A DNA stretch of 55,115 bases from Terriglobia bacterium (lineage in GTDB: Bacteria > Acidobacteriota > Terriglobia > Acidiferrales > 2-02-FULL-67-57), in NCBI GenBank assembly GCA_046758465.1, contig JBHIAG010000002.1:1-55115 (forward strand), read 5' to 3'. The translations under genes were made by a program, and so were the position numbers. The first letter of the stretch is position 1. Each line of letters starts with the position of its first letter. This document shows positions 2,656 through 18,184 of the stretch, one piece after another. The notes under the pieces are model-generated. The model had not been told where the DNA came from. It was given only the letters and a program-made list of their open reading frames with translations, and ran no database searches.

Positions 2656-2680
2656 GCGGAGGTCGGAACCCAGCGGTAGC

Positions 2681-3349: not shown

Positions 3350-3356
3350 TGAGGCC

Positions 3357-3385
3357 ATCCTAAGCCGCACACGCACCCAAGTCAA
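3357..3385 (-). promoter_or_regulatory. repeated sigma70-type promoter cassette (TTGACT-N17-TAGGAT)
   Basis: rc: GCGTTGACT TGGGTGCGTGTGCGGCT TAGGATGG. The -10 ends 7 nt before the ATG at 3349. A short GAGTAGG relic of the tail module lies 10 nt upstream. Confidence 0.6.
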
Positions 3386-3425
3386 CGCGCAGAGCCTACT
3401 CGCCTGCGGCGCTGGCGTAGTGGGC

Positions 3426-4538
3426 TCAACCCCAGATACTTCGAGCGGTTTCCACTACGAGCCGGAGTTTGTGTGTCTGGTCTTCCACTGAAATGCGGTT
3501 GCCAAGAATCGATGTAGCGAAGCCACACTGCGGGCTGAGCCCTAATCGTTCCAGCGGCACATACTGGCTCGCCTCGCCAATACGCTCGATGAGTTCCTCA
3601 CGTGTCTCCAACCGCGATGTCTTCGTGGTCACTAGGCCGAGCACCACGATCTTATCGTCCGGCACGTGCCGCAGTGGCTCAAAGGTGCCCGAACGAGCAT
3701 CATCGTATTCGAGCAGGAATCGCTGCGCCTTGACTTTTTGGAAGAGCGCCGGTGCGATCGGTTCGTAGCTGCCTTCCACGAGCCATCGACTGCCCTGGTT
3801 GCCTCGGCAGAGGTGAAAGCCAATGGTGACCTGCGGCGGGGCTGCCGCTATGACGGCATTGTCGAGTTCAATGGCGCGTTCGAGCCACCACTTTACACTT
3901 CCTGCCTGTTGCTCATAGAAGGCGCGTGTACGGGGATCAATCAACAAGGCATAGTGCGGAGCGTCAATTTGGACGTAGGTTGTCCCCAGGCGCACGAGTT
4001 CCTCTACTTCTTCCCGCAGGATTTCGACCACATCGGTCAAGAAGGAGTCGAGGGTCGGATAGACATGGCCCGAGCGCTCGCGCGACCAGAAATTCGCCCA
4101 GAGGCTCGGACTGGGCAGCGTAATCTTTGGGATGCGGCGAGTCCGCCCACGTAAGTAGGTGAACTCCTCAGCCGAGATGTGGCGCCGCCGCCGCAGCTTA
4201 CCCACCACGCCTAGGTTCGATGGGCGTTCGACATCTCGGTTCCCTACTTGCGGGTCTCCACGCCACTCACCCCATAGGAACGCGTCCAGCGTGTACTCGC
4301 CAAAACCCTCGACCGCCGCTGTCATCTGGCTCTGGAACGACTGGCGGCGCATCTCGCCGTCGGTGATAATGTCGAGTCCGGCTTCCTCTTGCAGCGCCAC
4401 CGCTTGATCCACTGCGCGGTCTTCGATCCTTTTGAACTCCGCTGGCGTCAGCCCACCCACGGCGGGTTGCTTTTGAGCGGCGAGCAATTCCGGCGGGCGA
4501 AGGAGGCTGCCCACTACATCGGCCCGTGCGGTGATCAT
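3426..4538 (-). CDS. cobalamin-independent methionine synthase (MetE C-terminal domain)-like protein
   Basis: ..VVGSLLRPPELL..IITDGEMRRQSF..FHLCRGN..LEYDD..LSPQCGFA.. pattern of the Meth_synt_2/UROD-like family. Start re-picked downstream of the promoter cassette. Confidence 0.75.
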   Translation of the reverse strand: MITARADVVGSLLRPPELLAAQKQPAVGGLTPAEFKRIEDRAVDQAVALQEEAGLDIITDGEMRRQSFQSQMTAAVEGFGEYTLDAFLWGEWRGDPQVGNRDVERPSNLGVVGKLRRRRHISAEEFTYLRGRTRRIPKITLPSPSLWANFWSRERSGHVYPTLDSFLTDVVEILREEVEELVRLGTTYVQIDAPHYALLIDPRTRAFYEQQAGSVKWWLERAIELDNAVIAAAPPQVTIGFHLCRGNQGSRWLVEGSYEPIAPALFQKVKAQRFLLEYDDARSGTFEPLRHVPDDKIVVLGLVTTKTSRLETREELIERIGEASQYVPLERLGLSPQCGFATSILGNRISVEDQTHKLRLVVETARSIWG

Positions 4539-4569
4539 GGTTGGCCAGAGAACCCGACGGTTAGCGGGC

Positions 4570-4598
4570 ATCCTAGACCGCGCCTCCCGACAAGTCAA
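4570..4598 (-). promoter_or_regulatory. repeated sigma70-type promoter cassette
   Basis: rc: GCGTTGACT TGTCGGGAGGCGCGGTC TAGGATG, with hexamers spaced 17 nt. Confidence 0.6.
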
Positions 4599-4607
4599 CG
4601 CGCAAGC

Positions 4608-4649
4608 TTACTCCGGGAAGTTCTTGCAGCGGAGGTGGGAGTGGAAGCG
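4608..4649 (-). repeat. relic ORF-tail module (..LRCKNFPE-stop), 9 nt upstream of the promoter cassette
   Basis: rc: ..CGCTTCCACTCCCACCTCCGCTGCAAGAACTTCCCGGAGTAA. Confidence 0.55.
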
Positions 4650-4672
4650 AGGTTGCCGCAATGGGTCGCTCG

Positions 4673-5248
4673 TCACCGGGAGGGTAGCCCAAGGTACCGA
4701 GGAACCTGCTTGCAGTAACGTGCGTAATCCTCGCCATGCACCTTACGCAGATGTTCCTCTTCCGTTAGAACCATCATATGAGCGATAGCTGCGAATAGGA
4801 TCACCCATCCCAGGGCGTACCATGAAGGGCGAAGCACAGCCAATCCGATTATTATCGGAACACTTCCGACGATCTGGGGATTCCTGGTCACACGATAGAA
4901 GCCGGTCTGTCTCAGCACATTCACTTTTCGGCCCAAGGAGCGATCCAGCCCAAGCCCAGCCATTGCCGTGACCAAAAGAACGAGTCCGACGCCTATCAAA
5001 GTCACGCCACTAATCCTGAGGAGCGGATCGACACGCGGGTCGTGGAACCAGAACCTAGGCCAGCTGCACGGATTGTAGAGGCATGGAAAGCTGAAATACA
5101 AACTCCAGATCAGAAACTGGAGAGAAGAAGAAAACAGCGTCAGCCGACCTTTTTGTCGGTAGTCACGCCGGACGAAGATCCGAAAGATCACAAAGGCGCT
5201 GGCAAACAGTAGGAAAACATAAATGAGGTAGACGGTGGGGATCGTCAT
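4673..5248 (-). CDS. isoprenylcysteine carboxyl / phospholipid methyltransferase-family membrane protein
   Basis: Multi-TM protein with C-terminal ..YRVTRNPQIVG..MMVLTEEEHLRKVHGEDYARYCKQVPRYL, typical of the ICMT/PEMT family. Start set at the ATG at 5248, downstream of a promoter relic and a GGAAGG SD. Confidence 0.75.
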   Translation of the reverse strand: MTIPTVYLIYVFLLFASAFVIFRIFVRRDYRQKGRLTLFSSSLQFLIWSLYFSFPCLYNPCSWPRFWFHDPRVDPLLRISGVTLIGVGLVLLVTAMAGLGLDRSLGRKVNVLRQTGFYRVTRNPQIVGSVPIIIGLAVLRPSWYALGWVILFAAIAHMMVLTEEEHLRKVHGEDYARYCKQVPRYLGLPSR

Positions 5249-5283
5249 GTAACCTTCCGACTGCAACTCCCCCCTTGGCAGCC

Positions 5284-5312
5284 ATCCTAGGCCCCACCCG
5301 CAGGCAAGCGCT
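5284..5312 (-). promoter_or_regulatory. promoter-cassette relic (spacer and -10 kept, -35 replaced)
   Basis: rc: AGCGCT TGCCTGCGGGTGGGGCC TAGGATGG. A second degenerate copy with TTGACT lies at 5372-5377. Confidence 0.4.
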
Positions 5313-5522
5313 GTGACCGCCGTCACATGTGAGTTGTGAGGAATGCTGGGGTTTCGCCCCGCCTACAGCCAAGTCAACGCGGGGTGTACGAGAACCAACT
5401 CTTTCCGGGTGGTCTAATTCCTGGACTCACGGCTTCGTAGAAGCAGGCAGTTGTAAGGGGATGTGCGGAAGGGTTTTTGGGCGGTTTCTGAAGGGCGCGC
5501 TGGGCGGTGTTCTAGGCCTGCG

Positions 5523-5551
5523 TTAACTTGCCTGCGGGCGGGGCGTAGGAT
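5523..5551 (+). promoter_or_regulatory. repeated sigma70-type promoter cassette
   Basis: GCGTTAACT TGCCTGCGGGCGGGGCG TAGGATGG. Confidence 0.55.
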
Positions 5552-5631
5552 GGCTGCAACAACGGGAGAGTTCCTTCCTATGATTGGCCGTGCCATCGCA
5601 AAGCACCGCGCACAAGACCTAACACAAGAAA

Positions 5632-5928
5632 TTGGAGAGCAAGAATGACTGGCGAGGACAGTTAAATGGCACCACGGCGCTGATGGTTGCGGCATCGAAC
5701 GGGCACGCGGAGGTCGTTCGCACCTTGCTTGAGGCTGGCGCGGATGTCGATGCAAGAACTGAAGGCGGGATGCCGGCTCCGCTGAATGTACGTGGGATGA
5801 CAGCTCTGCTCGGTGCGGCAGGTGGGGGTCACACCGATGTCGTTCAAGCTCTACTCGATGGGGGTGCCGAGGACAACCTTGGCGCCACAATCATCTTTTT
5901 CCGGACTGACTCCATGTCGACGATGTAA
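5632..5928 (+). CDS. ankyrin-repeat protein (short, possibly a fragment)
   Basis: ..GTTALMVAASNGHAEVVRTLLEAGADVDART..GMTALLGAAGGGHTDVVQALLDGGA.. gives two ankyrin repeats. It has a TTG start and an out-of-frame upstream ORF, so it may be a remnant. Confidence 0.5.
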   Translation: MESKNDWRGQLNGTTALMVAASNGHAEVVRTLLEAGADVDARTEGGMPAPLNVRGMTALLGAAGGGHTDVVQALLDGGAEDNLGATIIFFRTDSMSTM

Positions 5929-6054
5929 GCGGCACTTGATTGCGGTAGACTAGGAGAGCAAGTCGTGGGTCCGATTACCCTGGATGGGAGTGGCCCGACC
6001 TAGCAGACCAGCCGGGTCAAGTTCACCGGCTGCCTCAACCGAGCGGAGTGTCTG

Positions 6055-6948
6055 ATGAAGCTGGCAGGAATCTATCCGATTGTTCCAACCCCCTTTGATG
6101 AATCAGGAAGAATCGATCCGGAAAGTATCCAGCGCCTGACTGCGTTCATGGCCGGCTGCGGCGTGCAGGGCCTTGCCATCCTGGGTGTGATGGGCGAGGC
6201 GCAGAAACTGAACGACGCCGAGCGGGTCGAAGTCATCAAGGCATTCCGTACCGCCCTTCCGGAAAACTTGGCTTTGGTCGTCGGGGTCCGTGCCGCTGGA
6301 ACCGATCCCGCCGTGGACCAGGCGCGGACGGCGCAGGACTTGGGCGCCAATGCCTTGCTGGTGGGCCCGCCGCCCATCCAGAAGGACGGCGCCATTTTTA
6401 CTTACTACCAGCGCGTCGCCCAGGCGGTCGACGTACCTCTTGTGATCCATGACTACCCGGCATCAACAGGTATCCTGATGTCTCCAGAACTGATCGCCCG
6501 GTTGCATCGCGAGGTGGAGGGGATTCCCTACATCAAGCTGGAAGACCCGCCCACGGGGCCGAAGATGGACAGGGTGCGCGAGCTGGCGGGTGACCCCCTG
6601 GGCGTGTTCGGGGCCCTGGGCGGAATGTACGCGTTCGAAGAGCTGGACCGGGGCGCGCTCGGCATCATGACCGGCTTCGCCTATCCCGAACTTCTGGTTG
6701 ACCTCTACCAGCGCTACTCGAAGGGTGATGTCGCCGGCGCGGCGACGCTCTTCTATGACATGCTGCCTCTCATCCGCTTTGAGTTTCAGCCGGGGATGGG
6801 GATTTCGCTCCGCAAGCACATCCTGGTGCAGCGGGGCATCATTCGAACCGCCACCATCCGTCACCCGGGCGCGCAGGCCGACGCCAGGACCTTGGAACAC
6901 CTCGAGCGAATCCTGGACCACATGAGGCAGCGCGGCTACAAAGTCTAG
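6055..6948 (+). CDS. dihydrodipicolinate synthase/N-acetylneuraminate lyase-family aldolase
   Basis: MKLAGIYPIVPTPFDESGRID..GVQGLAILGVMGE.. is the class I aldolase (DapA-like) pattern. Confidence 0.8.
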   Translation: MKLAGIYPIVPTPFDESGRIDPESIQRLTAFMAGCGVQGLAILGVMGEAQKLNDAERVEVIKAFRTALPENLALVVGVRAAGTDPAVDQARTAQDLGANALLVGPPPIQKDGAIFTYYQRVAQAVDVPLVIHDYPASTGILMSPELIARLHREVEGIPYIKLEDPPTGPKMDRVRELAGDPLGVFGALGGMYAFEELDRGALGIMTGFAYPELLVDLYQRYSKGDVAGAATLFYDMLPLIRFEFQPGMGISLRKHILVQRGIIRTATIRHPGAQADARTLEHLERILDHMRQRGYKV

Positions 6949-6972
6949 CGATTCCCGCGGAGGCAACCGCTC

Positions 6973-7836
6973 ATGCGTCTGGCATCCATCCGTACTCACA
7001 AGGGCGAGACCGCTGCCGTGGTTCTGGATGATGGAGCGTTGCCTGTCGAGCGTCTGGCCGCTGCCCGGCAGAAACCGCTGCCGGCTACCCTGATGGAGCT
7101 GATCGCCGGTGGCCATCTCCCGGCTGTGGCTTCGGTGATGGCAGAGGACCCGCTGCCGGAACTAATTCCTCACGACAAGGTGGCCTACGGCCCTCCACTC
7201 CAACGGCCGGGGAAGATCTGGGGCATCGGCCTCAACTACCGTGAGCACGCTCGCGATCTCGATGTGAGTATGCCGACCCATCCGGCCAGCTTCATGAAAC
7301 CCGCCACCGCCATCATCGGATTCGGAGAAGCCATCTGCCTGCCCGCCGAGTCCCAGCGGGTGACGGCAGAAGCGGAGCTCGGCGTCATCATTGGCCGTCG
7401 TTGCCGCAACGCTAGCGGAGAAGAAGCGCGTCAGGCCATCTTCGGTTTCACCTGTGTGCTCGACATGACCGCCGAAGACATCCTGCGGCAGAATCCGCGC
7501 TTCCTGACCCGGGCCAAGAGCTTCGACACCTTTTTCAGTTTCGGGCCCGTTGTCCTGACCGCCGATGAAGTGTCCGACCTCCGCCAGCTGGTGGTGCGCA
7601 CCATCGTCAACGAGGAAGTTCGCGCGGAGAACACCGTGTCCAACATGACGTTCGATCCCCTCGAATTGATACGGTTTCACTCGCAGGGGATGACGCTGGA
7701 ACCGGGCGACATCATCTCCACCGGCACGCCGGGGGCCTGGCCGGTCCAGCCGGGCGATGTAGTGCGCTGCGAGATTTCGGGCTTCCCTCACTTGGAGAAT
7801 CGAGTTCAAGCGCCGGCGCGGGAGGGACAGAGCTAA
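6973..7836 (+). CDS. fumarylacetoacetate hydrolase (FAH)-family protein
   Basis: ..KIWGIGLNYREHA..AELGVIIG..TRAKSFDTF..GDIISTGTPG.. is a FAH-fold signature. Confidence 0.85.
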   Translation: MRLASIRTHKGETAAVVLDDGALPVERLAAARQKPLPATLMELIAGGHLPAVASVMAEDPLPELIPHDKVAYGPPLQRPGKIWGIGLNYREHARDLDVSMPTHPASFMKPATAIIGFGEAICLPAESQRVTAEAELGVIIGRRCRNASGEEARQAIFGFTCVLDMTAEDILRQNPRFLTRAKSFDTFFSFGPVVLTADEVSDLRQLVVRTIVNEEVRAENTVSNMTFDPLELIRFHSQGMTLEPGDIISTGTPGAWPVQPGDVVRCEISGFPHLENRVQAPAREGQS

Positions 7837-7905
7837 GAAGCAACAGGACGGGACGTTGCCTCGGCTTCGTCCCCCTACACTCGGCGTTCAGCAGAGGAGG
7901 ACACC

Positions 7906-8697
7906 ATGGACTTGGGTATTCGTGGCCGGGTTGCACTCATTGGCGCCTCGGGAAGGGGCCTGGGGCTGGCGACAGCGCAGCGCCTGGCGATGGAGGGCTG
8001 CGTCGTCGCTATCTGTGACAAGGAAGCGAGCGTGCTGAAACCCGCGCTGAAAAGCGTTCAAGCCGCTGGCAGCAACGTGAAAGCCAAAGCCTATCCGGTG
8101 GACTTGACCAAAACAGAAGAGATCGAGCAGTTGGTGGCTTCGGTCAAGAGCGATCTGGGGCCGGTCTCGATCTTGGTCACAAACTCCGGCGGGCCGCCGC
8201 CGGGCCCCTTCGATGCGGCGGCCGATGAGAAGTGGGTCTTTGCCTACTCCCTCACTTTTCTCAGCGCCGTCCGTCTCATCCGCGCCGTACTGCCCGACAT
8301 GAAGGCGCAGAAGTGGGGCCGCATCATCAACTTCACTTCACGGTCGCTCAAGGAGCCCATCCCCAACCTCATCATCTCCAATGCCGTGCGTCTGGCCGTG
8401 GGCGGGATGGCGAAGACGCTGGCCGGCGAGGTGGCGCAGTTCGGCATCACCGTCAACAACGTGTGTCCCGGCCCGACCACGACCGATCGGGCGATTGAGC
8501 TGGCGGGGGCGCGGGCGACCAAGAAAGGCATTAGCGTCGAGGAAGAACTCGCGCAGACCTCCAAGACAATACCGTTGGGGCGGCTGGCCCGGCCGGAAGA
8601 GCAGGCAGCCGCCGTCGCCTTCCTGGCGTCGGAGCCGGCCGGTTATATCACCGGCATTTCCCTCCTTGTAGACGGAGGGGCAGTGAAGGCGCTCTAG
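7906..8697 (+). CDS. short-chain dehydrogenase/reductase (SDR)
   Basis: N-terminal Gly-rich Rossmann motif (ALIGASGRGLG), ..NNVCPGPT.., ~260 aa. Confidence 0.8.
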   Translation: MDLGIRGRVALIGASGRGLGLATAQRLAMEGCVVAICDKEASVLKPALKSVQAAGSNVKAKAYPVDLTKTEEIEQLVASVKSDLGPVSILVTNSGGPPPGPFDAAADEKWVFAYSLTFLSAVRLIRAVLPDMKAQKWGRIINFTSRSLKEPIPNLIISNAVRLAVGGMAKTLAGEVAQFGITVNNVCPGPTTTDRAIELAGARATKKGISVEEELAQTSKTIPLGRLARPEEQAAAVAFLASEPAGYITGISLLVDGGAVKAL

Positions 8698-8871
8698 GAA
8701 AGGAAAGACCACCTCTCCCGCGCCCGGAAAATGCGTCAATTTCGGCCTTTTTCAGCCTGCTTTTGAATTCCTGGTCTCGTCTGTATCTCCTTCAGGTGCA
8801 AGGGGTTAATGCGATGCCACAGGAGTTCGTTTTGCAGTTTTCCTTTTTTCGGATGAGCGAGCCTTGGCCTG

Positions 8872-9027
8872 CTCTTGCAGACCTGTGGGGGTGTGGTCCC
8901 ACCCCCCGAGGCGGGCGCGGATGTGAATGCGAAAGACAAGGATGGCAAGACAGCCTTGATGATGGCGACAAGGACGGGTCACACGACCGTCGTTCAACTG
9001 CTGAAGAAGGCCGGAGCGAAGGAATAA
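8872..9027 (+). pseudogene. ankyrin-repeat gene fragment (C-terminal repeat only)
   Basis: The frame ending at TAA 9025-9027 reads ..[39 protein letters not shown]-stop. There is no start or upstream repeats. Confidence 0.5.
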
Positions 9028-9050
9028 CAACTGCCCCACCCCGCGTCCCC

Positions 9051-9089
9051 TTCCAATCCCTCCTCCTCCGCCTGAACTTCCCGGAGTAA
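9051..9089 (+). repeat. relic ORF-tail module (..FQSLLLRLNFPE-stop), 10 nt upstream of the promoter cassette
   Basis: TTCCAATCCCTCCTCCTCCGCCTGAACTTCCCGGAGTAA. Confidence 0.6.
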
Positions 9090-9099
9090 CCCCTTCGTG

Positions 9100-9128
9100 T
9101 TGACTTGCCTGCGGGTAGGACTTAGAGT
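9100..9128 (+). promoter_or_regulatory. repeated sigma70-type promoter cassette
   Basis: GTGTTGACT TGCCTGCGGGTAGGACT TAGAGT, about 30 nt upstream of the ATG at 9158. Confidence 0.6.
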
Positions 9129-9157
9129 GAACCAAGTTAGAAAACTAGAGGCGGGCC

Positions 9158-9571
9158 ATGCTAAGAAGAGTTTTTCTGTTGGGTCCGGTTCTGGTCGCCC
9201 TGTTAGTGGCGGGCCAGCTTTCTTCAGTCACGAACAGCCCGGATCAGATCGCTCGAGGGAAATACCTAGTGGAAGGTGTGGCGATGTGCCAGGACTGTCA
9301 TAGCCCACGCAACGAGAAAGGCGAGTTCGACCCTTCACTGTGGTTGCAGGGTGCGAGCCTCGAATGTGCCCCCCTGCTTCCGATGCCGTGGGCCGAACTT
9401 GCTACCCCTATTGCCGGCCTTCCCACGTTGAGCACTTCCGAGGCAGTGAAGCTAATGGAAACCGGCCTGATGCCAGACGGTAAACCGTTGCTACCGCCGA
9501 TGCCTCAGTACCGATTCACACGTGAAGATGCGGAGGCCGCCGTCGCTTACCTCAAGTCGCTAGAGAACTAG
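9158..9571 (+). CDS. secreted mono-haem c-type cytochrome
   Basis: Signal-peptide-like N-terminus, CQDCH haem-binding motif, and a distal Met in ..LLPPMPQY... Confidence 0.8.
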   Translation: MLRRVFLLGPVLVALLVAGQLSSVTNSPDQIARGKYLVEGVAMCQDCHSPRNEKGEFDPSLWLQGASLECAPLLPMPWAELATPIAGLPTLSTSEAVKLMETGLMPDGKPLLPPMPQYRFTREDAEAAVAYLKSLEN

Positions 9572-9649
9572 TTGCTCGGCTTACACTAGCAGGAGCGATT
9601 GTGCCTTGTAGAGAAAAGCGGCTGGGCGAAGTCCTTGGGTGCCTTCGCG

Positions 9650-9678
9650 TTGACTTGCCTGCGGGTGCGGCCTAAGCT
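9650..9678 (+). promoter_or_regulatory. repeated sigma70-type promoter cassette
   Basis: GCGTTGACT TGCCTGCGGGTGCGGCC TAAGCT. Confidence 0.6.
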
Positions 9679-9711
9679 AATACGTCCGGCCAACATGGAA
9701 GGGAGAGCTCG

Positions 9712-9984
9712 ATGCTCCAGTTACAACGACTTTGTTGGCTGATGCTGGTGTTGGTGCTCTTTCCCGCGCTTGTGGAGGCACGGCAGGCTGCCCTGTCGGA
9801 GGACCCGCGCGTTGCGGGTGGACCTGGAAAGGTTAATTGTGTCGACCCTGGTCGCTCCTCCGAGTGTCAAGCCCGGGAAGCGCCGTCGCCGGCCATGCTC
9901 CTGCGTGGGTTTTTCCCGGCTTGGTACAAGCACTTAGCGCTACTGGGATTCGCTCCGAGTGCGGCAAGTGAGATGCAATGCTGA
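9712..9984 (+). CDS. hypothetical secreted protein
   Basis: 90-aa ORF with a hydrophobic signal-like N-terminus, a GGAAGGGAG SD and a promoter cassette upstream. No family recognised. Confidence 0.4.
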   Translation: MLQLQRLCWLMLVLVLFPALVEARQAALSEDPRVAGGPGKVNCVDPGRSSECQAREAPSPAMLLRGFFPAWYKHLALLGFAPSAASEMQC

Positions 9985-10026
9985 TGCAAGGAATGGTGTG
10001 ACCCGAACAGCCAGGAGGAGGTTGTT

Positions 10027-11385
10027 GTGAACACAGTCTTCGTAGTCGGCGCAGGTCCGGCCGGATTGTTCGCGGCGCAGAAAATCGCACGTGCCGGGCA
10101 TTCGGTGGTTATCTTCAACCAGGACATCAAGCCCGGCGGACTGGCTGAATACGGCATCTATCCGACCAAGGACAAGATGAAGAACGGGCTGCGGAAGCAG
10201 TTCGGAAAGATTCTGGCCATGCCCGAGGTAACTTACTTTGGCCACACGGCTGTCGGTGCGAACCGGGCTTTTTCGATTGCCGAGCTGCGCGAACTGAACC
10301 CGGCGGCGCTGGTGTTTGCGGTGGGCGCGCAGGGAACCAAGAGGCTGGGCCTGCCGGGCGAGGAGGCCGGCGGAGTGTACGCCTCCAAGGATTTCGTGTA
10401 CCACTACAACCAGCTGCCACCTTTCGCCGGGCAGGATTTCTCCACCGGAAAGCGCATCTGCATTATCGGGATGGGCAACGTAATGGTGGACGTAGCGCAC
10501 TGGTTACTGGTGGACGACCCCGAGCGCCAGGCAGAAGAAGTCACTGTGATCGCCCGGCGCGGGCCGTTCGAGGCCAAGTTCGACCAGAAGGAGTTTGCCT
10601 ACATAGAAGAGTTCCTTGACCGCCGTGCGCTGGAGGAAGAGCTACGGCGGGTGAAGGACCGTATAGCCAAGGTTGGGCAGGACATCGCCCAGGTGCCGGA
10701 CGCGAGTTTCCCCGCCCTCGCTAAGCCTTTCCGGGAGCCTCCCAGTCGCTGCCTGCGCTTTCGTTTCCTGACCTCGCCGACAGCCATTCATGCCGATGGT
10801 AGCGGGCGGATCGTGGGTTTGACAGTGACTGAAAACCTGTTGGTGCCGCGCAACGGCGGAACGAAAGCCCAGGCGACCGACCAAACTACAGAGCTCGAAT
10901 TCGACACCATGATTTTCGCTATCGGCGACGTTGCCGACCCCACCCTGGGCCTTCCTTACGAAAAGAACTCCTACGTGACCAACTCCGACACGGCCGATCC
11001 CGAGCGGGCCGGCTACGAGGTCTTCGACCCGCAAAGCGGGAAGCTACTGGACGGAACTTACGTGGTCGGCTGGGCGCGGAAGGCCAGCGAAGGCTTGGTA
11101 GGCGTTGCCCGCCGGGATGGAGAAACTGGCGCGACTCATATTCTGAACTACTTGGAGGGCGCGCCCCAAAAACCTGCTATCTCTCCGGGGGAGATTCGGC
11201 ACCGGCTCGACGGCAAGAACGTAGAGTGCATCACCAAGGGAGACCTGCCATACCTGACGCGAGCAGAGGAAAAGCAGGCGCAGGAGCGGGGCCTGCCTCG
11301 GTTCAAGTTCGGCGACGATACAGCTATGCTGGCCGCCATCAAGGAGGAAAAAACCAAGGGCGGCGTTCCCCGCGCTGCCGCCTGA
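10027..11385 (+). CDS. FAD/NADPH-dependent ferredoxin-NADP reductase-like oxidoreductase (adrenodoxin reductase/FprA type)
   Basis: VFVVGAGPAGLFAAQKI..GGL..YGI.P dinucleotide motif, second GMGNVMVDVA motif, GTG start behind an AGGAGG SD. Confidence 0.75.
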   Translation: MNTVFVVGAGPAGLFAAQKIARAGHSVVIFNQDIKPGGLAEYGIYPTKDKMKNGLRKQFGKILAMPEVTYFGHTAVGANRAFSIAELRELNPAALVFAVGAQGTKRLGLPGEEAGGVYASKDFVYHYNQLPPFAGQDFSTGKRICIIGMGNVMVDVAHWLLVDDPERQAEEVTVIARRGPFEAKFDQKEFAYIEEFLDRRALEEELRRVKDRIAKVGQDIAQVPDASFPALAKPFREPPSRCLRFRFLTSPTAIHADGSGRIVGLTVTENLLVPRNGGTKAQATDQTTELEFDTMIFAIGDVADPTLGLPYEKNSYVTNSDTADPERAGYEVFDPQSGKLLDGTYVVGWARKASEGLVGVARRDGETGATHILNYLEGAPQKPAISPGEIRHRLDGKNVECITKGDLPYLTRAEEKQAQERGLPRFKFGDDTAMLAAIKEEKTKGGVPRAAA

Positions 11386-11518: not shown

Positions 11519-11535
11519 TTCGCACCTCCTTCGCG

Positions 11536-11564
11536 TTGACTTGCCTGCGGGGGCAGCTTACTCT
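11536..11564 (+). promoter_or_regulatory. repeated sigma70-type promoter cassette
   Basis: GCGTTGACT TGCCTGCGGGGGCAGCT TACTCT. Confidence 0.6.
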
Positions 11565-11594
11565 GCTTTCCAGAGTTCTCTGCTGAGGGTAGAG

Positions 11595-12311
11595 ATGAGA
11601 ATCACAAGAGTTCTCTCACTGGCTACGTTGACACTCCTTCTCTGTGGCTCCGCTTGTACACAGTTGGGTGAGTTGCAGGTTGAATCCCGCTCGATTGAGC
11701 TGGCAGATGCCGAGTCAGTTGTGGCCGAGATTAGGATGGGAGCCGGAGAGCTGAGGGTATCTGGGGGTGCCGCGCCACTGCTGGAAGCTGACTTCGCCTA
11801 TAACGTTGCCGACTGGAAGCCCGAAGTGGAGTACAGGGTAATGGGCGATCGCGGTCGGCTCACTGTTCGGCAGCCCAGCGTGACAGGGGGCACTTTAGGC
11901 GGTACCCGATATGAGTGGGACCTGCGTCTGAATGACGACGTTCTCATGGAGCTGAGCGTGGAACTAGGTGCTGGCCGTGCTGACCTCATCCTTGGTTCCC
12001 TCTCGCTGACCGATCTTGAAATCAAGACGGGAGCGGGCGATACCATTCTGGACTTGACCGGTGATTGGAAGACCGATTTACGCGCGCGAATCAGGGGTGG
12101 CGTGGGCCGAGCCACCGTACGGCTTCCCCGTGACGTGGGTGTGTGGGTCGATGCCAAGGCCGGAATAGGCGGCATCAATGCCACTGGCCTAAAGAGGGAC
12201 GGCAGCGCCTACGTCAACGATGCCTACGGAGAGTCAGATGTAACGCTCCGGATTGACATCAAAGGGGGTGTGGGGCAGATCAACTTGGAATTGGGTGCAG
12301 CGGTGCTGTAG
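11595..12311 (+). CDS. lipoprotein with toast-rack (DUF2154/LiaF-C-like) beta-repeat domain
   Basis: Lipobox-like ..LLLCGSAC, then repetitive ..GAG.L.V..G.. beta strands (ELGAGRADLILG..IKTGAGDTILDL..GGVGRATVRLP..GGVGQINLEL). Start set downstream of the promoter. Confidence 0.65.
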   Translation: MRITRVLSLATLTLLLCGSACTQLGELQVESRSIELADAESVVAEIRMGAGELRVSGGAAPLLEADFAYNVADWKPEVEYRVMGDRGRLTVRQPSVTGGTLGGTRYEWDLRLNDDVLMELSVELGAGRADLILGSLSLTDLEIKTGAGDTILDLTGDWKTDLRARIRGGVGRATVRLPRDVGVWVDAKAGIGGINATGLKRDGSAYVNDAYGESDVTLRIDIKGGVGQINLELGAAVL

Positions 12312-12388
12312 AGGAAACTCAAAGATTCCAGCGCGGACCCAAGGAACTTACTTTTCGAGCCTTCATTCTTACCTTTTACGACTCTCGC

Positions 12389-12427
12389 TTCCAATCCCTC
12401 CTGGGCCGCATGAACTTCCCCGAGTAG
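12389..12427 (+). repeat. relic ORF-tail module (..FQSLLGRMNFPE-stop) followed by a degenerate promoter part
   Basis: TTCCAATCCCTCCTGGGCCGCATGAACTTCCCCGAGTAG. Confidence 0.55.
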
Positions 12428-12498
12428 GCTGTTCTCCACACTTGCCAAAAGAGTCTTCCCAGCGCACTCTATGTTGAGTTAGGCCTGTGAGATAGGAG

Positions 12499-12843
12499 AT
12501 GCCAGAGGTCAAACAACGCCAAGCTGGCTCGGTCATCGTGCTGGAGCTGAGTGGACGGCTTACCATGGGGGAGGGTTGTGCCTCTTTGGAGCGCAAGCTG
12601 AAGAGCCTAGCCGCAGATGGGCTCCTCTCCTTGCTGCTGGATTGCAGCCAGCTACAAACGATTGATAGTCAGGGTATTGAAGTTCTGTTGGGAGGCCTCC
12701 GGTCACACGAAACACGAGGCGGCAAGCTGAAGCTGTTCAAGGTCTCACCCAGAGTGCGCTAGGTGCTGGAAATCACCCGTTTGCTCCGGCTTTTTGAAGT
12801 GTACGAGGATGAAGAGACTGCGCTAAAGAATTTCGCTTCCTAG
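12499..12843 (+). pseudogene. STAS-domain anti-sigma-factor antagonist interrupted by an in-frame TAG
   Basis: ..VIVLELSGRLTMGEG..LLLDCSQLQTIDSQGIEVLLG..GGKLKLFKVSPRVR-TAG(12760-12762)-VLEITRLLRLFEVYEDEETALKNFAS-stop. The segment after the TAG is in frame and completes the STAS fold. Confidence 0.75.
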
Positions 12844-12850
12844 GTGGGAA

Positions 12851-12893
12851 TTCCTCCAAGACGCTTCTCCGCCGCCTGAACTTCCCGGAGTAG
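12851..12893 (+). repeat. relic ORF-tail module (..LLRRLNFPE-stop), no promoter part
   Basis: TTCCTCCAAGACGCTTCTCCGCCGCCTGAACTTCCCGGAGTAG. Confidence 0.55.
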
Positions 12894-12906
12894 GTACGAC
12901 CCGTGC

Positions 12907-13767: not shown

Positions 13768-13838
13768 GTGCGGGAACGTAGAGTATCCTTCCGTTCGCGG
13801 TCGGTCAATGTCCACCTCCTTGCGCCCTGCGCCTCCGC

Positions 13839-13874
13839 CTGGAGCGCATGCGCCGCATGAACTTCCCGGAATAG
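13839..13874 (+). repeat. relic ORF-tail module (..LERMRRMNFPE-stop), 9 nt upstream of the promoter cassette
   Basis: CTGGAGCGCATGCGCCGCATGAACTTCCCGGAATAG. Confidence 0.55.
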
Positions 13875-13883
13875 CCCACCGCG

Positions 13884-13912
13884 TTGACTTGCCTGTGGGT
13901 GGGGCGTAGGAT
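13884..13912 (+). promoter_or_regulatory. repeated sigma70-type promoter cassette
   Basis: GCGTTGACT TGCCTGTGGGTGGGGCG TAGGATG. An AAAGGAGGG SD precedes the ATG at 13940. Confidence 0.65.
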
Positions 13913-13939
13913 GCTTCACCCAAAGGAGGGAATCTTTCC

Positions 13940-15385
13940 ATGAATTGTATTTGCGTTATCTGTCTGTCGGTTCTGCTAACCGCCGTGCCGGTTTTCTCGC
14001 AGGCCACTTCACTCGCGGAGGATCGGGAAGTAGCTTCATCCCTTCGCCTGCTGGAAGCTTGGATAGAAACCCAGATGGCCTACCGCGGATTGCCGGGACT
14101 CTCGATTGGAATTGTGCGGGACCAGGAGCTGATATGGTGTCGCGGGTTCGGTTTTGCTGACCTCGAGAAAAGGATCCCCGCCACACCGCAGACCAACTAT
14201 CGCATCGCCTCTATCTCGAAGCTTTTCACCGCCACCGCTATCCTCCAGCTCCGCGACGCGGGCAAGCTCCAGCTCGATGACCCCGTCGCCAAGCATCTGC
14301 CCTAGTTCAAGATTCGCAACAACCACCCTGACGCTCCAGTCATTACCATCCGCCATCTGCTGACCCACACGTCGGGTCTGCCGCGCGAGTCAGCTTTCCC
14401 TTACTGGATGGATGCCAACTTTCCCACCCGCGAGGAGATCATCGAGAGTCTCCCCAAACAGCAAACCATTTACGCGCCCGAGACTCAGTTGAAGTATTCG
14501 AACCTGGCATTAGCGTTAGCCGGGGAGATTGTTCAAGCCGTTTCCGGTCAGCACTATGCCGGCTACATTCAGCAGCACATCCTTGGCCCACTCGATATGG
14601 CAAACACCAGTGCCCTGGTACGCGAAGAACACCGCAAGCGCTTGGCAACTCCTTACGGTCGTCGACTGCCCGACATGTCCCGGCCAGACCGGCCTTTCAT
14701 GGATACCAAGGCCATCACCCCGGCAGCCGGCCTCTCATCCAATGTCAAAGACCTCGCTCGTTTTGCTTCACTGCAATTCCGCGACGGTCCGGCTGGCGGC
14801 AAGCAGATACTCAAGGGTAGTACCTTGCGTGAAATGCACCGTGTCCACTGGCTCGCCCCCGGGTGGGAGATGGGCTGGGGGCTCGGATTCTCGGTGTGGA
14901 AGCGTGGAAGCCAGACGCTGTTTGGGCACGGTGGCTCTCTGGCAGGCTACCGAACTATCCTGCAAATGGATGGGAAAGAAAAGATTGCCGTCATAGTCAT
15001 GACCAACGCTGGCGACGGGAACCCTGGCCGGTATGCCAGCAAGGCGTGGGAATGGATAGCCCCGGCTCTAAAGCACGCCGCTGCCTCCTCCAAGGAATTG
15101 CCTCAACCCGATCCAGCGTGGCAACGTTACGTCGGCCGCTACCGCAATCCCTGGGGGGATTCACACGTCCTGATCTATAAGGGTGAATTGGTGATCATCA
15201 ATCCCGCCGCAGGGGATCCGCTGACTTCCATGATGAAATTGATACCCGTCGCCGAGCACACCTTTCGCATCGAGGGTAAGGTCCTCTATCAGGACCTCGG
15301 TGAGCTCGTAATCTTCGAACTCGGACCCGACGGCAAAGTCGTCCGCATGAGGGAGGGTGCCAACTACAGCGATCCCATTCCCTGA
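13940..15385 (+). pseudogene. serine hydrolase of the beta-lactamase/PBP4 (class C-like) family interrupted by an in-frame TAG
   Basis: Signal peptide and SxxK motif (ASISKLFTA). Then ..VAKHLP-TAG(14303-14305)-FKIRNNHPDAPVITIRHLLTHTSGLP.. continues in the same frame into the 325-aa ORF starting at 14408. Confidence 0.85.
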
Positions 15386-15396
15386 GCTCCCGCGCG

Positions 15397-15425
15397 TTGA
15401 CTTGGGTGGGGGTGCGGAATAGGAT
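15397..15425 (+). promoter_or_regulatory. repeated sigma70-type promoter cassette
   Basis: GCGTTGACT TGGGTGGGGGTGCGGAA TAGGATGG. Positions 15393-15427 are identical over 35 nt to 16316-16350. Confidence 0.6.
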
Positions 15426-15573
15426 GGGGTGCAATTAGGGAGTTTGTCCAAGGGAGGTAGCTCTTGCCAACCTGCGGCTCCGTCCCCTTGCTTCCCCTTC
15501 TCCAACCCCAGCTTGAGCGGCCAGCAGAGAGGCAAGAGTGTCCCGAATTCTTAGAAAATAGGAGGTGACTACC

Positions 15574-15813
15574 ATGTGTTTCTTTTTCAGTTTGATCCCG
15601 GCTACGTTTTGGGCCGTAGTAGGGTATTTTGTGCTTTTCGCCTCTACTCGTGCAGAAGGGACTTTGCATAGGTTTGGTCGGGTCCTGGGAATTTGGGTTT
15701 TAGTTGTTGCCTTGTTTTTTCCAATTTGTGGCGCATATGTAACGTTGTCTGGAAAGTGCCCAATCGAAAAGATGATGCAACAATGGGAAATGCCAACCGA
15801 GAAACAACCTTAG
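15574..15813 (+). CDS. small hydrophobic membrane protein
   Basis: 79 aa with two predicted TM stretches. The ATG lies 8 nt after the AGGAGG at 15560-15565, in an AT-richer patch. Confidence 0.45.
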   Translation: MCFFFSLIPATFWAVVGYFVLFASTRAEGTLHRFGRVLGIWVLVVALFFPICGAYVTLSGKCPIEKMMQQWEMPTEKQP

Positions 15814-15967
15814 TGGAAGCTGATATGGAAAGTAGCTTGCTGGGAGCAATCCCCGCGTCAGCGGGGGATGAAAAGGGATAGGTCTTTATTGGTTTTTCCG
15901 AGTGACCTTCATTGCTTAAGCCAACGAGTCAGCAGTCCGGAAGAGCCACAAAGATGGGGAGGTCCTA

Positions 15968-16183
15968 ATGCATTGGGATGGCTGGTGGCAGATGGGTTGG
16001 ATGTGGGTATTCTGGGTCCTTGTAATTGTCGCACTGTTTCTGTTTGTCCGCTGGATCACAATCTCAGCCCGCGATTCGGAAAAGACGCGCGAGCCGCCCG
16101 AGGAAATCTTGAAAAGTCGCTACGCGCGCGGTGAAATCGACAAGGAAGAATACGAGCGGCGGCTTCACGATCTGCGACGGTAG
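15968..16183 (+). CDS. SHOCT-domain small membrane protein
   Basis: Trp-rich TM segment followed by ..ILKSRYARGEIDKEEYERRLHDL.., the SHOCT short C-terminal motif. Confidence 0.7.
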   Translation: MHWDGWWQMGWMWVFWVLVIVALFLFVRWITISARDSEKTREPPEEILKSRYARGEIDKEEYERRLHDLRR

Positions 16184-16270
16184 ACCGTGACAGGCAACCC
16201 AAAACGGTCATCAAGACAGGAGCCGAGTCAGTAAGCGTCCATCGCGCTAATCTCCGTTCCAACTCTTCGC

Positions 16271-16309
16271 TTCCAAGACCTGCTCGGCCGCATAAACTTT
16301 CCTGAATAA
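16271..16309 (+). repeat. relic ORF-tail module (..FQDLLGRINFPE-stop), 10 nt upstream of the promoter cassette
   Basis: TTCCAAGACCTGCTCGGCCGCATAAACTTTCCTGAATAA. The frame is closed 22 codons upstream by a stop, so it is not a live gene. Confidence 0.6.
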
Positions 16310-16319
16310 GTCCGTCGCG

Positions 16320-16348
16320 TTGACTTGGGTGGGGGTGCGGAATAGGAT
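16320..16348 (+). promoter_or_regulatory. repeated sigma70-type promoter cassette
   Basis: GCGTTGACT TGGGTGGGGGTGCGGAA TAGGATGG, a 35-nt identity with the copy at 15393-15427. Confidence 0.6.
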
Positions 16349-16392
16349 GGTGGGCAACGTGGCCCCGTGGTGACTTTTTCGGGAGACAGACC

Positions 16393-18075
16393 ATGAAATG
16401 CACACGCATCTTGGGACTCGCAGTCGTCTTGCTTCTTCCGACTCAGGCTCTGGCACAGACCGCCGACATCATCCTCATCAACGGAAATGTCATTACCGTG
16501 GATGAACGAAAGCCGCGGGCGGAGGCCATTGCAATCCAGGGCGAGCGAATCCTGGCCGCCGGTTCTAATGAAGAAATCAAGCATCTGCGCGAGAGCCGGA
16601 CGCATGTGGTTGATCTTCAGGGGAAGACAGTTATTCCGGGCATGGTGGACGGGCATCTGCACTTTGTGGGACTCGGATCTGATCGCGGTGCGTCGCTTGA
16701 TCTGAGCGAGGCGAGAAGTGAGGCGGATGTGGCGGCGCAGGTCCGGCGTGCGCTTGGACGCGTAAAGCGGGGGGAGTGGATCACCGGCGGGGATTGGCAT
16801 ACGGGGAACTGGGATCGAGAACAGTGGCCGACCAAGGGGTCGCTGGACCAAGCGGCTCCAAACAATCCGGTGTTGCTGAGGGGGATGCACGGACACGCCA
16901 GTTGGGTCAACTCGAAGGCGCTCGAAATGGCAGGCATCACCAAGAACACGCCAGACCCGCCCGGCGGCAAGATCCTGCGCGACGACAAAACGGGTGAGGC
17001 GAGTGGCATTCTCATCGAGAATGCGCAGGCCCTGGTTCGCAACAAGATCCCGGAGACCAGCCGCGAGCCCCTGAAAGAGCGCATCAAGAAAAGCATCCGG
17101 CTGGCGCTGTCGTACGGCTTTGTCGGCGCGCATGATATGGGAACATCGCTCCAGACCGTTGAGGCTTACAAGGAACTGATTGATGTCGGCGAGTTTCCGT
17201 TCCGCATCAACGCTATTCCTCGTGTCCGGAATTCTGGGGCCCTGCTAGACGAAATCCTGAAGCGCGGGCCTCTCGTCGGCTATGGCAATCATCGCCTGAC
17301 GATGCGCGGCGTGAAGCTCTCGATCGACGGGGCGCTAGGATCACGAGGTGCAGCGATGATGCTGCCCTATGAGGACGAGCCGCACAACTTGGGCGTGATC
17401 CGCGTCCCGTACGAACAGCTCTACTTCATCTTGGAAAAATCGCTGAAGGCAGGGTTCAACGTGGCCATTCACGCCATCGGGGACCGCGGCAACCAGATGG
17501 CGCTGGACGCCGTTGAGCAGGCGCTGCTCGGCGTGCCGGTTCAGGACCATCGAATCCGGGTCGAGCATGCGCAGGTCGTGCAGCTGGAAGACCTGCCGCG
17601 TTTTGCCAGGCTCGGGATCCTGGCGTCGGTGCAGTGGATTCATTGCACGCTCGACATGCCCTGGGCCGAAAAGCGGATCGGCTCGGAGCGTATCCGGGGC
17701 GCGTACGCGTGGAGGACACTCCTGAACCACGGCGCGCGACTGGTTGGTGGCTCGGACGAAGGAGCGAAAACGTTCAGTCCATTCATGGGGATTTTCGCCG
17801 CCGTCACGCGCCAAGACGAGAAAGGTTGGCCCCAAGGAGGATGGTATCCCGACCAGAAGCTCACTCGTTATGAGGCGCTCAAGAGCTACACGCTCGATGC
17901 GGCCTATGCCAGCTTTGAAGAGGATGTTCTTGGCTCGATTACGCCGGGCAAGTATGCCGACGTCGTCGTCCTTTCCAAAGACATCATGACGGTCCCTGCT
18001 CCGGAGATTCTTCAAACCCAAGTCCTGATGACGATGGTTGGCGGCAAGATCGTCTTCGAGCGGAAGGAGCAATAA
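16393..18075 (+). CDS. secreted metal-dependent amidohydrolase (Amidohydro_3-like)
   Basis: Signal peptide, ..IPGMVDGHLHF.. metal-binding HxH motif, ..VAIHAIGD.., ..RVEHAQ.., ~560 aa. Confidence 0.85.
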   Translation: MKCTRILGLAVVLLLPTQALAQTADIILINGNVITVDERKPRAEAIAIQGERILAAGSNEEIKHLRESRTHVVDLQGKTVIPGMVDGHLHFVGLGSDRGASLDLSEARSEADVAAQVRRALGRVKRGEWITGGDWHTGNWDREQWPTKGSLDQAAPNNPVLLRGMHGHASWVNSKALEMAGITKNTPDPPGGKILRDDKTGEASGILIENAQALVRNKIPETSREPLKERIKKSIRLALSYGFVGAHDMGTSLQTVEAYKELIDVGEFPFRINAIPRVRNSGALLDEILKRGPLVGYGNHRLTMRGVKLSIDGALGSRGAAMMLPYEDEPHNLGVIRVPYEQLYFILEKSLKAGFNVAIHAIGDRGNQMALDAVEQALLGVPVQDHRIRVEHAQVVQLEDLPRFARLGILASVQWIHCTLDMPWAEKRIGSERIRGAYAWRTLLNHGARLVGGSDEGAKTFSPFMGIFAAVTRQDEKGWPQGGWYPDQKLTRYEALKSYTLDAAYASFEEDVLGSITPGKYADVVVLSKDIMTVPAPEILQTQVLMTMVGGKIVFERKEQ

Positions 18076-18155
18076 CACCGCCCACCGACGTTCTCTCCAA
18101 CTCACGCTGAAAACCATCGAGCGGAAGATTGCCACGGTAGACTTGAAAGTTCTCG

Positions 18156-18184
18156 TTGACACCCCCGAAGCGCAGGATTAGGGT
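18156..18184 (+). promoter_or_regulatory. sigma70-type promoter related to the cassette
   Basis: CGTTGACA CCCCCGAAGCGCAGGAT TAGGGT. An AAGGGAGG SD precedes the ATG at 18228. Confidence 0.5.

Follow-up and report, generated by a model that had tools for sequence, protein, structure and literature searches.

A promoter-like box of ~40 bp precedes a series of unrelated genes in the left part of a 55-kb stretch (~60% G+C) of contig JBHIAG010000002.1 from a Terriglobia bacterium, the whole of which is referred to below as the window. The box is best read, with moderate confidence, as a lineage-specific sigma-70-type promoter class that would derive from the promoter of a Ser/Thr-kinase family, and the accessory units behind it may well belong to one regulon. 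The motif, its enrichment, its orientation and spacing, its phylogenetic spread, the coding relics beside it and the boundaries of homologous blocks were observed directly in the DNA. In the proposed scheme, a near-consensus TTGACT -35, a 17-bp spacer and a TAGGAT or TAAGAT -10 would be embedded in a box reaching from ~-39 to ~-4, with a conserved CGCG flank, G-rich spacer and GGC discriminator. The hexamers and the extended -35 TTGACTTG would be the ancestral promoter of a large acidobacterial kinase family, and in the lineage of the window (B25T1B10, AH_259_A11_L15 and relatives among “Ca. Acidiferrales” and Terriglobia metagenome-assembled genomes [MAGs]) the version with the G-rich spacer would head many nonkinase accessory units.

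Alignment of the window sites gives the consensus cttCGCGTTGACTTG[CC/GG]TGnGGGyGsGGnnTAGGATGGc. Nine complete boxes, one copy without a -35 (5284) and one half box without a -10 (5349) are found between 3354 and 16351 (Table 1). Exact TTGACT-N17-TAGGAT occurs at five sites (3357 and 4570 on the minus strand; 13884, 15397 and 16320 on the plus strand), against an expectation of 0.00 from 100 shuffles, and 14 matches are obtained when up to two mismatches are allowed, against 1.39 ± 1.23. The other four complete boxes combine TTGACT or TTAACT with a TAnnnT-type -10, still 17 bp apart. A first-pass annotation of this DNA had reported ten TTGACT-N17-TAGGAT promoters. All of its coordinates were reproduced, but only five of the ten sites are exact, the -35 at 5523 being TTAACT and the -10s at 9100, 9650 and 11536 being TAGAGT, TAAGCT and TACTCT. 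Its observation that conservation extends beyond the hexamers was borne out by the site alignment: the GCG flank, two spacer types (GCCTGCGGG.. and GGGTGGGGG..) and TAGGATGG are shared. The identity it reported between 15393-15427 and 16316-16350 is likewise exact, covering precisely 35 nt with zero extension on either side.

A 36-nt weight matrix yielded 11 matches above 12 bits (17.7 to 51.0), all between 3357 and 16320, compared with a single match, at a maximum of 15.6 bits, in 20 shuffles. The matrix was trained on the window sites and recovers them by construction; its matches demonstrate clustering and absence elsewhere rather than independent discovery. Nothing comparable is present in the other 39 kb of the window. 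The site at 29109, previously listed as a comparable copy, is related but weak (13.4 bits), and that at 18156, previously counted as a member, drops out, as it has the hexamers only and scores below 12 bits. The sequence AGTTCTCGTTGACACC ... TAGGGT at 18151-18184 recurs in MAG B25T1B10 (locus L095, 6970-7020), before a different gene, and two copies were seen. A second promoter family around 18156 was considered and rejected, the similarity being common to one L095 site only.

Every complete box has the same orientation as the open reading frame (ORF) downstream of it, and sites occur on both strands; three units lie on the minus strand and the others on the plus strand, each with its own box. 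The start codon is located 7 to 44 nt past the -10 in eight of the nine complete boxes, mostly with a Shine-Dalgarno-like sequence. The nearest sizeable ORFs behind the 15397 box, 15565-15813 and 15868-16134, have no Pfam match. Pfam assignments confirm that the downstream genes are nonparalogous (methyltransferase, MetE-like, PEMT, cytochrome c, FAD oxidoreductase, toast-rack, beta-lactamase and amidohydrolase). The earlier description of unrelated genes on both strands behind real-looking sigma-70-type promoters therefore appears sound: like sigma-70-type promoters, the predicted sites have their hexamers 17 bp apart and lie co-oriented upstream of a gene at a plausible distance. No Rfam family matches the box sites, and only tRNAs reach the gathering score in the window. 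Full-text literature searches found no description of the box motif, and the paper reclassifying extracytoplasmic function (ECF) sigma factors holds nothing relevant.

The box is widespread in related genomes. An exact scan of 185,579 species, each represented by a single genome, with GCGTTGACTTGSSTGNGGG (positions 1 to 19 of the box) returned at least 114 stretches, where ~70 chance matches would be expected for a collection of that size by our own arithmetic. Relatives were compared as fetched 8-kb chunks (loci designated L plus a number). Acidobacteriota account for at least ~80 stretches from at least ~25 species-level genomes (Terriglobia/“Ca. Acidiferrales”), including MAG B25T1B10, single-amplified genome AH_259_A11_L15, several “Ca. 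Acidiferrales” and Terriglobia MAGs and soil MAGs. Among the matches listed, almost all of those in Acidobacteriota continue as ..GsGGccTArGATGGc with the right spacing and are followed by an ORF, whereas those in other phyla lie within coding sequence without a -10. The 27 pattern matches in viral contigs were dismissed as chance matches, almost all of them falling in one AT-rich phage coding sequence. Loci L029, L053, L064, L080, L101 and L113 are binned as Deltaproteobacteria, Nitrospinota, Chloroflexi, Planctomycetota, Dongiaceae or Enterobacteriaceae and carry full boxes, relics or an acidobacterial-type kinase; their contigs are probably misbinned acidobacterial contigs.

This distribution does not agree with the earlier view of the box as specific to an island, as it occurs in ~25 species-level Acidobacteriota genomes, dispersed over megabase contigs, among the matches listed. 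On the 655-kb contig CBDFHE010000017, matches are found at 1-8, 88-96, 184-192, 232-240 and 528-536 kb. Boxes are also clustered locally, with two or more in 26 of the 8-kb chunks listed and six in L038. Two window units have orthologues in B25T1B10 and AH_259_A11_L15 at 82 to 87% nucleotide identity, which places the source of the window among the Terriglobia (Acidobacteriota) related to these genomes. Box-driven ORFs of at least 100 amino acids comprise 15 protein kinases, 4 ankyrin proteins, 4 TPR proteins and 2 ion channels among the 69 in the matches listed, and box-driven ORFs overall are spread over 84 Pfam families; in the genomes closest to the window, a kinase follows just 7 of the 67 boxes listed. 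Box-driven kinases begin with MIGQTISHYRILEKLGGGGMG or MPDS..SGRTISHYR... A hairpin repeat (GTGCCAAAACC...GGTTTTGGCAC) near boxes in AH_259_A11_L15 loci was discounted, being rare under a strict pattern.

The relation to kinases was examined in an unbiased sample of 80 acidobacterial kinase genes, found via protein sequence in metagenomes. Upstream of these genes, TTGAC is present in 62, TTGACTTG in 30 and TTGAC-N18-TAnnnT in 48, with a -10 that is usually TAAGAT or TAACAT, whereas the GCG flank is present in only 1 of the 80 and the spacers are variable and, by inspection, not G-rich. The extended -35 TTGACTTG and its -10 are therefore a putative old, phylum-wide promoter of the Ser/Thr-kinase family, and the CGCG flank and G-rich spacer appear to be derived features of the lineage of the window. 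In 24 of 61 promoter-bearing kinase loci, an in-frame start codon lies exactly 8 to 9 nt past the -10. This geometry makes sense only for leaderless mRNA, placing the predicted transcription start there, and the peak provides indirect, independent support for the hexamers as real promoters. The 3357 site has the same geometry as the leaderless kinase loci, at 7 nt, and the methyltransferase mRNA starting from it is thus probably leaderless as well.

One alternative to a promoter is a protein-binding or structural DNA repeat that merely resembles -35 and -10 elements. It would accommodate a box copy shared by two genomes (L019/L074, described below) that is situated at the 3' end of a convergent gene rather than before an ORF. 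Nevertheless, the consistent orientation to ORFs, the tight start codon spacing, the leaderless peak in kinases, the maintenance of both hexamers at exactly 17 bp and the lack of an Rfam match make a nonpromoter repeat the least likely of the alternatives and a very improbable one.

Another alternative is a generic strong housekeeping sigma-A consensus, for which the G-rich spacer would reflect base composition and the clustering would reflect many short monocistronic units. Hexamers near the sigma-70 consensus, an optimal 17-bp spacer, the 84 downstream families and the widespread occurrence of TTGACTTG with TAAGAT before kinases across the phylum are all compatible with this view. It is nevertheless unlikely. 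The first-pass annotation had pointed out that the same extended motif before housekeeping genes would make it the consensus promoter of the host, and within the window this is not the case: the tRNA-Val/Asp promoter has an unrelated spacer, the accBC, pil, thiE and yjeF regions lack the box and the best box score is below zero in 26 of 27 genes and ORFs outside the cluster. Furthermore, spacer positions carry up to ~1.5 bits, and kinase promoters outside the lineage keep the hexamers with spacers that, by inspection, are variable and not G-rich.

The similarity among copies could in principle have arisen by recent copy-and-paste, with the box acting as a mobile promoter (MITE-, Correia- or REPIN-like or a “putative mobile promoter”), and propagation of mobile promoters had been proposed in the first-pass annotation. 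Eleven copies within 13 kb before nonhomologous genes, the one exactly identical 35-mer pair, the local rearrangement evident at 5284/5349 and the presence of the same ~42-nt relic at a fixed 9 to 10 nt upstream of four copies would all be expected under such a process. However, pairwise local alignments of window copies reach 36 nt at most, and identity breaks off sharply at the edge of the functional box, leaving a shared core of only 35 to 36 nt. In a logo of 90 boxes from at least eight genomes, information is confined to approximately -7 to +32 relative to TTGACT (~40 bp) and fades gradually to either side, unlike an element with sharp ends. The hexamers are kept exactly 17 bp apart in this logo while other positions vary, and the CGCG flank and spacer positions carry 0.6 to 1.6 bits, the sites having been ascertained by pattern.

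Over the 24 positions that follow TTGACTTG, identity averages 0.670 within and 0.663 between genomes, a difference reached by 111 of 500 label permutations; this equality gives no indication that copies have evolved in concert or spread recently within a genome. Each of the two spacer types is found in several species, and the exact 35-mer of 15397 and 16320 is also present in another species (L026), so the identical pair is no proof of recent duplication. The box also precedes orthologous genes in other species. Terminal inverted repeats are absent, an inverted-repeat search of the window returning only oppositely oriented boxes, and there is no stable fold at the relic-box junctions, which fold worse than shuffles on both strands (z +0.2 to +1.9). 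An attC-like or REP-like structure was rejected on the same grounds. The 36-nt limit, the decay of the logo, the absence of inverted repeats and folds, the equal identities and the recurrence of spacer types and 35-mer in several species fit a putative cis-element held near its consensus by selection rather than by recent copying, and mobility of the box itself is quite unlikely.

The closest concept in the literature is promoter reuse or propagation. Putative mobile promoters were defined by at least 80% identity over at least 50 nt in the region from -150 to -50 (Matus-Garcia, Nijveen and van Passel 2012; PMC3575422). The box resembles them in that similar upstream sequences precede nonhomologous genes, both within a genome and between taxa, with no mobile element attached. 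Unlike them, it shares only a 35- to 36-nt core that includes the -10 and falls short of 80% over 50 nt, and its similarity is no higher within than between genomes, so that it behaves as a selected cis-regulatory motif and would more closely resemble a regulon promoter with a conserved spacer. Similarly, Correia, ERIC and REPIN sequences are short intergenic repeats able to supply promoters to neighbors, but elements of this MITE/REP type have inverted termini, stem-loops, target duplications and sharp ends, all of which are lacking in the box.

The relic at 5284 noted in the first-pass annotation does consist of a spacer and -10 without a -35, but the half box 65 nt upstream of it had been overlooked. 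Together they look like one box split by insertion or recombination. The 36 nt between them (5313-5348) contain small inverted repeats (TCACATGTGA; GTGAC-GGCG-GTCAC), and the spacer sequence is apparently duplicated on either side, which suggests a scar of insertion or of box-box recombination.

The history of the boxed units is indicated by coding scraps adjacent to them. Seven relics of ~40 nt, derived from the C terminus of a TPR-module gene (..RFQSLLRRMNFPE, then stop), mark the 3' ends of window units. Upstream of the boxes at 4570 (minus strand), 9100, 13884 and 16320 (plus strand), ~42 nt at a fixed distance of 9 to 10 nt translate to ..RFQ[S/D]LLRRMNFPE followed by a stop. The copies differ mostly synonymously (CTC/CTG, CGC/CGG, TTC/TTT, CCG/CCT, GAG/GAA and TAG/TAA), which shows that the relic evolved as coding DNA. 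It is not the true C terminus of the upstream genes, as ORFs in its frame span only 10 to 60 codons or are evidently spurious, and the genuine upstream genes terminate in different frames. An ECF-type promoter in the upstream “GAACTT...CGTT” was also rejected, since the AAC-to-CGT spacing is 20 nt rather than 16 to 17 nt and the sequence is the coding relic.

A protein search identified ..DSLRSDPRFQDLLRRMNFPE plus stop as the natural C terminus of a very large TPR-module family; the top matches were short TPR proteins, and the search alone does not prove a link to kinases. That link comes from other loci together with N-terminal relics. L088 contains a kinase ORF of ~800 amino acids ending ..DPRYHDLLRRMGLPP and stop, in L060 a TPR tail ending ..RRMNFPED and stop is preceded by sequence homologous to the parts of L088 and other kinase loci that encode the kinase, and in L094 the middle of a kinase gene is deleted while its box, N terminus and relic remain. 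The TPR module is thus the predicted end of Ser/Thr kinases in the lineage of the window. At the other end, the 22-codon ORF at 5580-5648 is read as a putative decayed N terminus of the kinase family starting MIGQTISHYRILEKLGGGGMG, and in L029 and L092 other ORFs carry a fused MIGK.. N terminus. Intact TPR-module and kinase genes are absent from the window. In the fetched loci, relics outnumber intact tails by ~20 to 1, and their left ends vary from 8 to 21 codons. In L083, the reading frame of a 379-amino-acid nonkinase ORF (3838-4977) continues into an NFPE-type relic and terminates at the stop codon of that relic (..NLLSIRNFPE); the relic is missing from the orthologues in L095 and L090.

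Comparisons between genomes place unit boundaries at these same sequences. Window positions 11528-12431 (box, toast-rack gene and relic) are 87% identical to L095 (B25T1B10) 6075-6958, with unrelated sequence on both flanks; homology starts at ..CCTTCGCGTTGACTTG and stops 4 nt after ..GAGTAG. Similarly, window positions 4023-4603 match L090 (AH_259_A11_L15) up to the left (upstream) edge of the 4570 box. An all-against-all comparison of loci revealed several further intergenome blocks with a box at their start or a relic at their end, among them a 634-nt block with a TPR gene that is 95% identical between L019 2013-2645 (AH_259_A11_L15) and L074 3109-3742 (species-level MAG CBDEGR01). This block starts at a box, its gene lies on the strand opposite to the box, and its identity exceeds the 80 to 88% of other shared genes, which hints at a recent transfer. 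Since homology blocks begin at the box and stop after the relic, the region is apparently built of units consisting of box, gene or genes and relic. Cassette-wise assembly, as proposed in the first-pass annotation, therefore holds in so far as the build is cassette-like and intergenome blocks begin at the left edge of the box, but the box is not island specific.

These boundaries raise the possibility that box and relic serve as recombination sites or portable homology arms through which units are exchanged between kinase loci and genomes, in an integron-like manner without attC. The sharp edges of the toast-rack block at the box and 4 nt past the relic, the other blocks, including that with 95% identity, the excess of relics over intact TPR-module genes and the in-frame fusion in L083 would follow from such exchange. 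Rearrangement breakpoints are, however, expected at the edges of transcription units anyway, no integrase or recombinase domain was found among ~50 window ORFs scanned against Pfam, the boxes have neither dyad symmetry nor hairpins, and the range of left ends of the relics is as deletion decay predicts. Exchange through homology arms is therefore improbable, as is the related idea, with a similarly small chance of being correct, that a gene landing inside a kinase gene becomes a portable unit swapped by homologous recombination into other kinase slots of the genome or population. If true, the homology-arm reading would describe a recombinase-free, self-expressing analogue of an integron, made from the conserved ends of an expanded gene family.

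The array does share with integron cassette arrays a dense succession of one- or two-gene units of unrelated function, recurring short bounds and the occurrence of the same unit in different contexts. It differs in lacking an integrase and attC-like hairpins. Integron cassettes are mostly promoterless and in one orientation, whereas the boxed units have their own promoter-like box each and lie on both strands, bounded by this box and a coding-sequence relic.

A selected promoter class could be conserved beyond its hexamers if another factor reads the remainder. Positions ~-29 to -13 of the spacer are not normally read base specifically by RNA polymerase in sigma-70 holoenzyme contacts. Their conservation, equal within and between genomes, suggests that a shared trans-acting factor may read the spacer, either a regulator bound over it or a dedicated sigma factor. 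In that case, the boxed genes would constitute one regulon. The earlier suggestion of a co-regulated set is plausible and would be compatible with this scheme. The box resembles regulon promoters with an operator in the core promoter in its conservation beyond the hexamers, fixed geometry, diversity of genes and common consensus across species. It differs from them in symmetry and in a gene set (kinases, ankyrin and TPR proteins and exported enzymes) without an obvious common pathway. The stretch from ~2.6 to 18 kb would be an accessory, decaying and recombining region packed with boxed units, several of which may occupy former kinase slots. The orphan N- and C-terminal kinase/TPR scraps suggest that these units captured the promoter by gene replacement or deletion, rather than receiving it from a mobile element. 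Promoter activity, the factor and this replacement history are all deduced from sequence.

Several points weigh against a selected kinase-derived promoter class with its own regulator. Because the genome scan was anchored on 19 fixed nucleotides at the start of the box and the matrix was derived from the window sites, ascertainment partly biases both the logo and the within- versus between-genome comparison. For two pairs of orthologues, box and gene have diverged at about the same rate (31 of 35 box positions compared with 87% gene identity for the window and L095; ~27 of 35 compared with 82% for the window and L090), which indicates moderate rather than extreme constraint. The box is also without the dyad or direct-repeat symmetry of known operators.

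The window as a whole is chromosomal, as shown by its tRNA genes and the core genes of its right half (accB/accC, Xaa-Pro peptidase, pilMNOQ, thiE, yjeF, ubiD, an amino acid permease and a SpoIIE phosphatase). The accessory genes of the left part (~2.6 to 18.7 kb) encode a methyltransferase, MetE-like and PEMT-family proteins, a DHDPS-FAH-SDR trio, ankyrin fragments, cytochrome c, an FAD oxidoreductase, a toast-rack lipoprotein, a STAS protein, a nitrilase-family hydrolase, a split beta-lactamase, an amidohydrolase and a DUF4440 protein. Designation of this part as an island is reasonable and weakly supported by G+C content at third codon positions, which is somewhat lower in the accessory genes (0.685) than in the core part (0.741). 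The HTH_21 insertion sequence (IS) fragment is the sole mobile-element trace among the ~50 window ORFs compared with Pfam. A phage origin was rejected, as neither 3-20 kb nor 26-50 kb had a megablast match among 50,697 phage records. A transposase-like gene is 99.9% identical on two contigs of “Ca. Acidiferrales” MAG CBDFHE01 (L089 3892-5564; L111 3405-5077 and 7072-8000), pointing to an IS that may be active in that genome.

Signs of decay in the accessory region are the split box, two ankyrin fragments, the split beta-lactamase gene and the IS fragment. The DHDPS-FAH-SDR block (6055-8697) lies between the two ankyrin fragments (5632-5928 and 8857-9027), and it looks as if a box-driven ankyrin gene, comparable to those in L002, L084 and L097, had been split by insertion of this three-gene operon. 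The two ORFs of the beta-lactamase-family gene cover Pfam profile positions 1-84 and 121-317, and the gene is probably a frameshifted or internally deleted pseudogene. The STAS-domain protein of the boxed region (12499-12762) and the HAMP-SpoIIE phosphatase of the core (39688-41649) are both components of partner-switching sigma factor control. Five consecutive minus-strand ORFs of 170 to 747 amino acids without Pfam matches (19255-25609) lie between the boxed region and the tRNA-Asp and tRNA-Val genes.

Table 1. Positions of boxes, coding relics and other features in the window
Feature	Coordinates	Strand	Context
IS-type transposase fragment (HTH_21 domain)	205-795		Left margin of accessory region; 69% DNA identity to a stretch in L061
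NFPE relic (RFQDLLRRMNFTE, stop)	2617-2658	-	Orphan TPR-module 3' end just downstream of methyltransferase unit
Complete box (CGCGTTGACTTGGGTGCGTGTGCGGCTTAGGATGGC)	3354-3389	-	Class I methyltransferase (3349-2681); ATG 7 nt past -10
Complete box	4567-4602	-	MetE-like gene (4538-3426); start 31 nt past -10
NFPE relic (RFHSHLRCKNFPE, stop)	4608-4649	-	Stop 10 nt before -35 of 4570 box
Box relic: spacer and TAGGAT -10, no -35	5284-5312	-	PEMT-family gene (5248-4673); start 35 nt past -10
Half box: GCGTTGACTTG and spacer, no -10	5349-5384	-	65 nt upstream of 5284 relic
Complete box, TTAACT variant	5519-5554	+	Divergent from 5284 box; start 28 nt past -10
22-codon ORF (MIGRAIAKHRAQDLTQEIGEQE, stop), starting MIGRAIAKHR..	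5580-5648	+	28 nt past 5523 box; followed by ankyrin fragment (5632-5928)
NFPE relic (PFQSLLLRLNFPE, stop)	9048-9089	+	Stop 10 nt before 9100 box; out of frame with ankyrin fragment ending at 9027
Complete box, -10 TAGAGT	9096-9131	+	Cytochrome c gene (9158-9571); start 29 nt past -10
Complete box, -10 TAAGCT	9646-9681	+	90-amino-acid exported ORF and FAD oxidoreductase (9712-11385); start 33 nt past -10
Complete box, -10 TACTCT	11532-11567	+	Toast-rack/LiaF-like lipoprotein (11595-12311); start 30 nt past -10
NFPE relic (RFQSLLGRMNFPE, stop)	12386-12427	+	Closes toast-rack unit; L095 homology stops 4 nt after
Short NFPE relic (TLLRRLNFPE, stop)	12861-12893	+	After STAS-domain ORF (12499-12762)
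Short NFPE relic (ERMRRMNFPE, stop)	13842-13874	+	9 nt before 13884 box
Complete box	13880-13915	+	Split beta-lactamase-family gene (13940-14305, 14408-15385); start 27 nt past -10
Complete box, GGGTGGGGGTGCGGAA spacer type	15393-15428	+	First sizeable ORF 139-148 nt past -10
NFPE relic (RFQDLLGRINFPE, stop)	16268-16309	+	Synonymous changes TTT, CCT, GAA, TAA; 10 nt before 16320 box
Complete box	16316-16351	+	Exported amidohydrolase (16393-18075); start 44 nt past -10
Ordinary sigma-70-like site TTGACA..TAGGGT, <12 bits	18156-18184	+	DUF4440 gene; outside extended family
tRNA-Asp and tRNA-Val	25822-25983	-	
Control promoter TTGTCA-N17-TACAAT with TG	25998-26026	-	tRNA-Val/Asp; spacer and flanks unrelated to box
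Weak box relative (TTGACTTGCCGAGGGCAGCGGACTAGAAC; 13.4 bits)	29109-29137	-	SDR gene in core part
tRNA-SeC	33084-33184		Directly 3' of 819-amino-acid ORF without Pfam match
Partial tRNA	55063-55115		Cut by right end of window

Transcription signals of Acidobacteriota are almost uncharted, least of all known in uncultured Terriglobia and Acidiferrales. A 35- to 40-bp box before scores of unrelated genes in approximately two dozen species is therefore a candidate signature of a large regulon of Ser/Thr kinases, ankyrin and TPR proteins and exported enzymes, and may offer a ready-made promoter part for genetics in these lineages. The case also illustrates that promoters of one region can be nearly identical without having moved recently. 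If units are exchanged as cassettes, this would represent a new way to assemble accessory gene arrays. If the promoter was captured, the N- and C-terminal scraps reveal its donor family, and the box would have an unusual, datable origin in an expanded kinase family.

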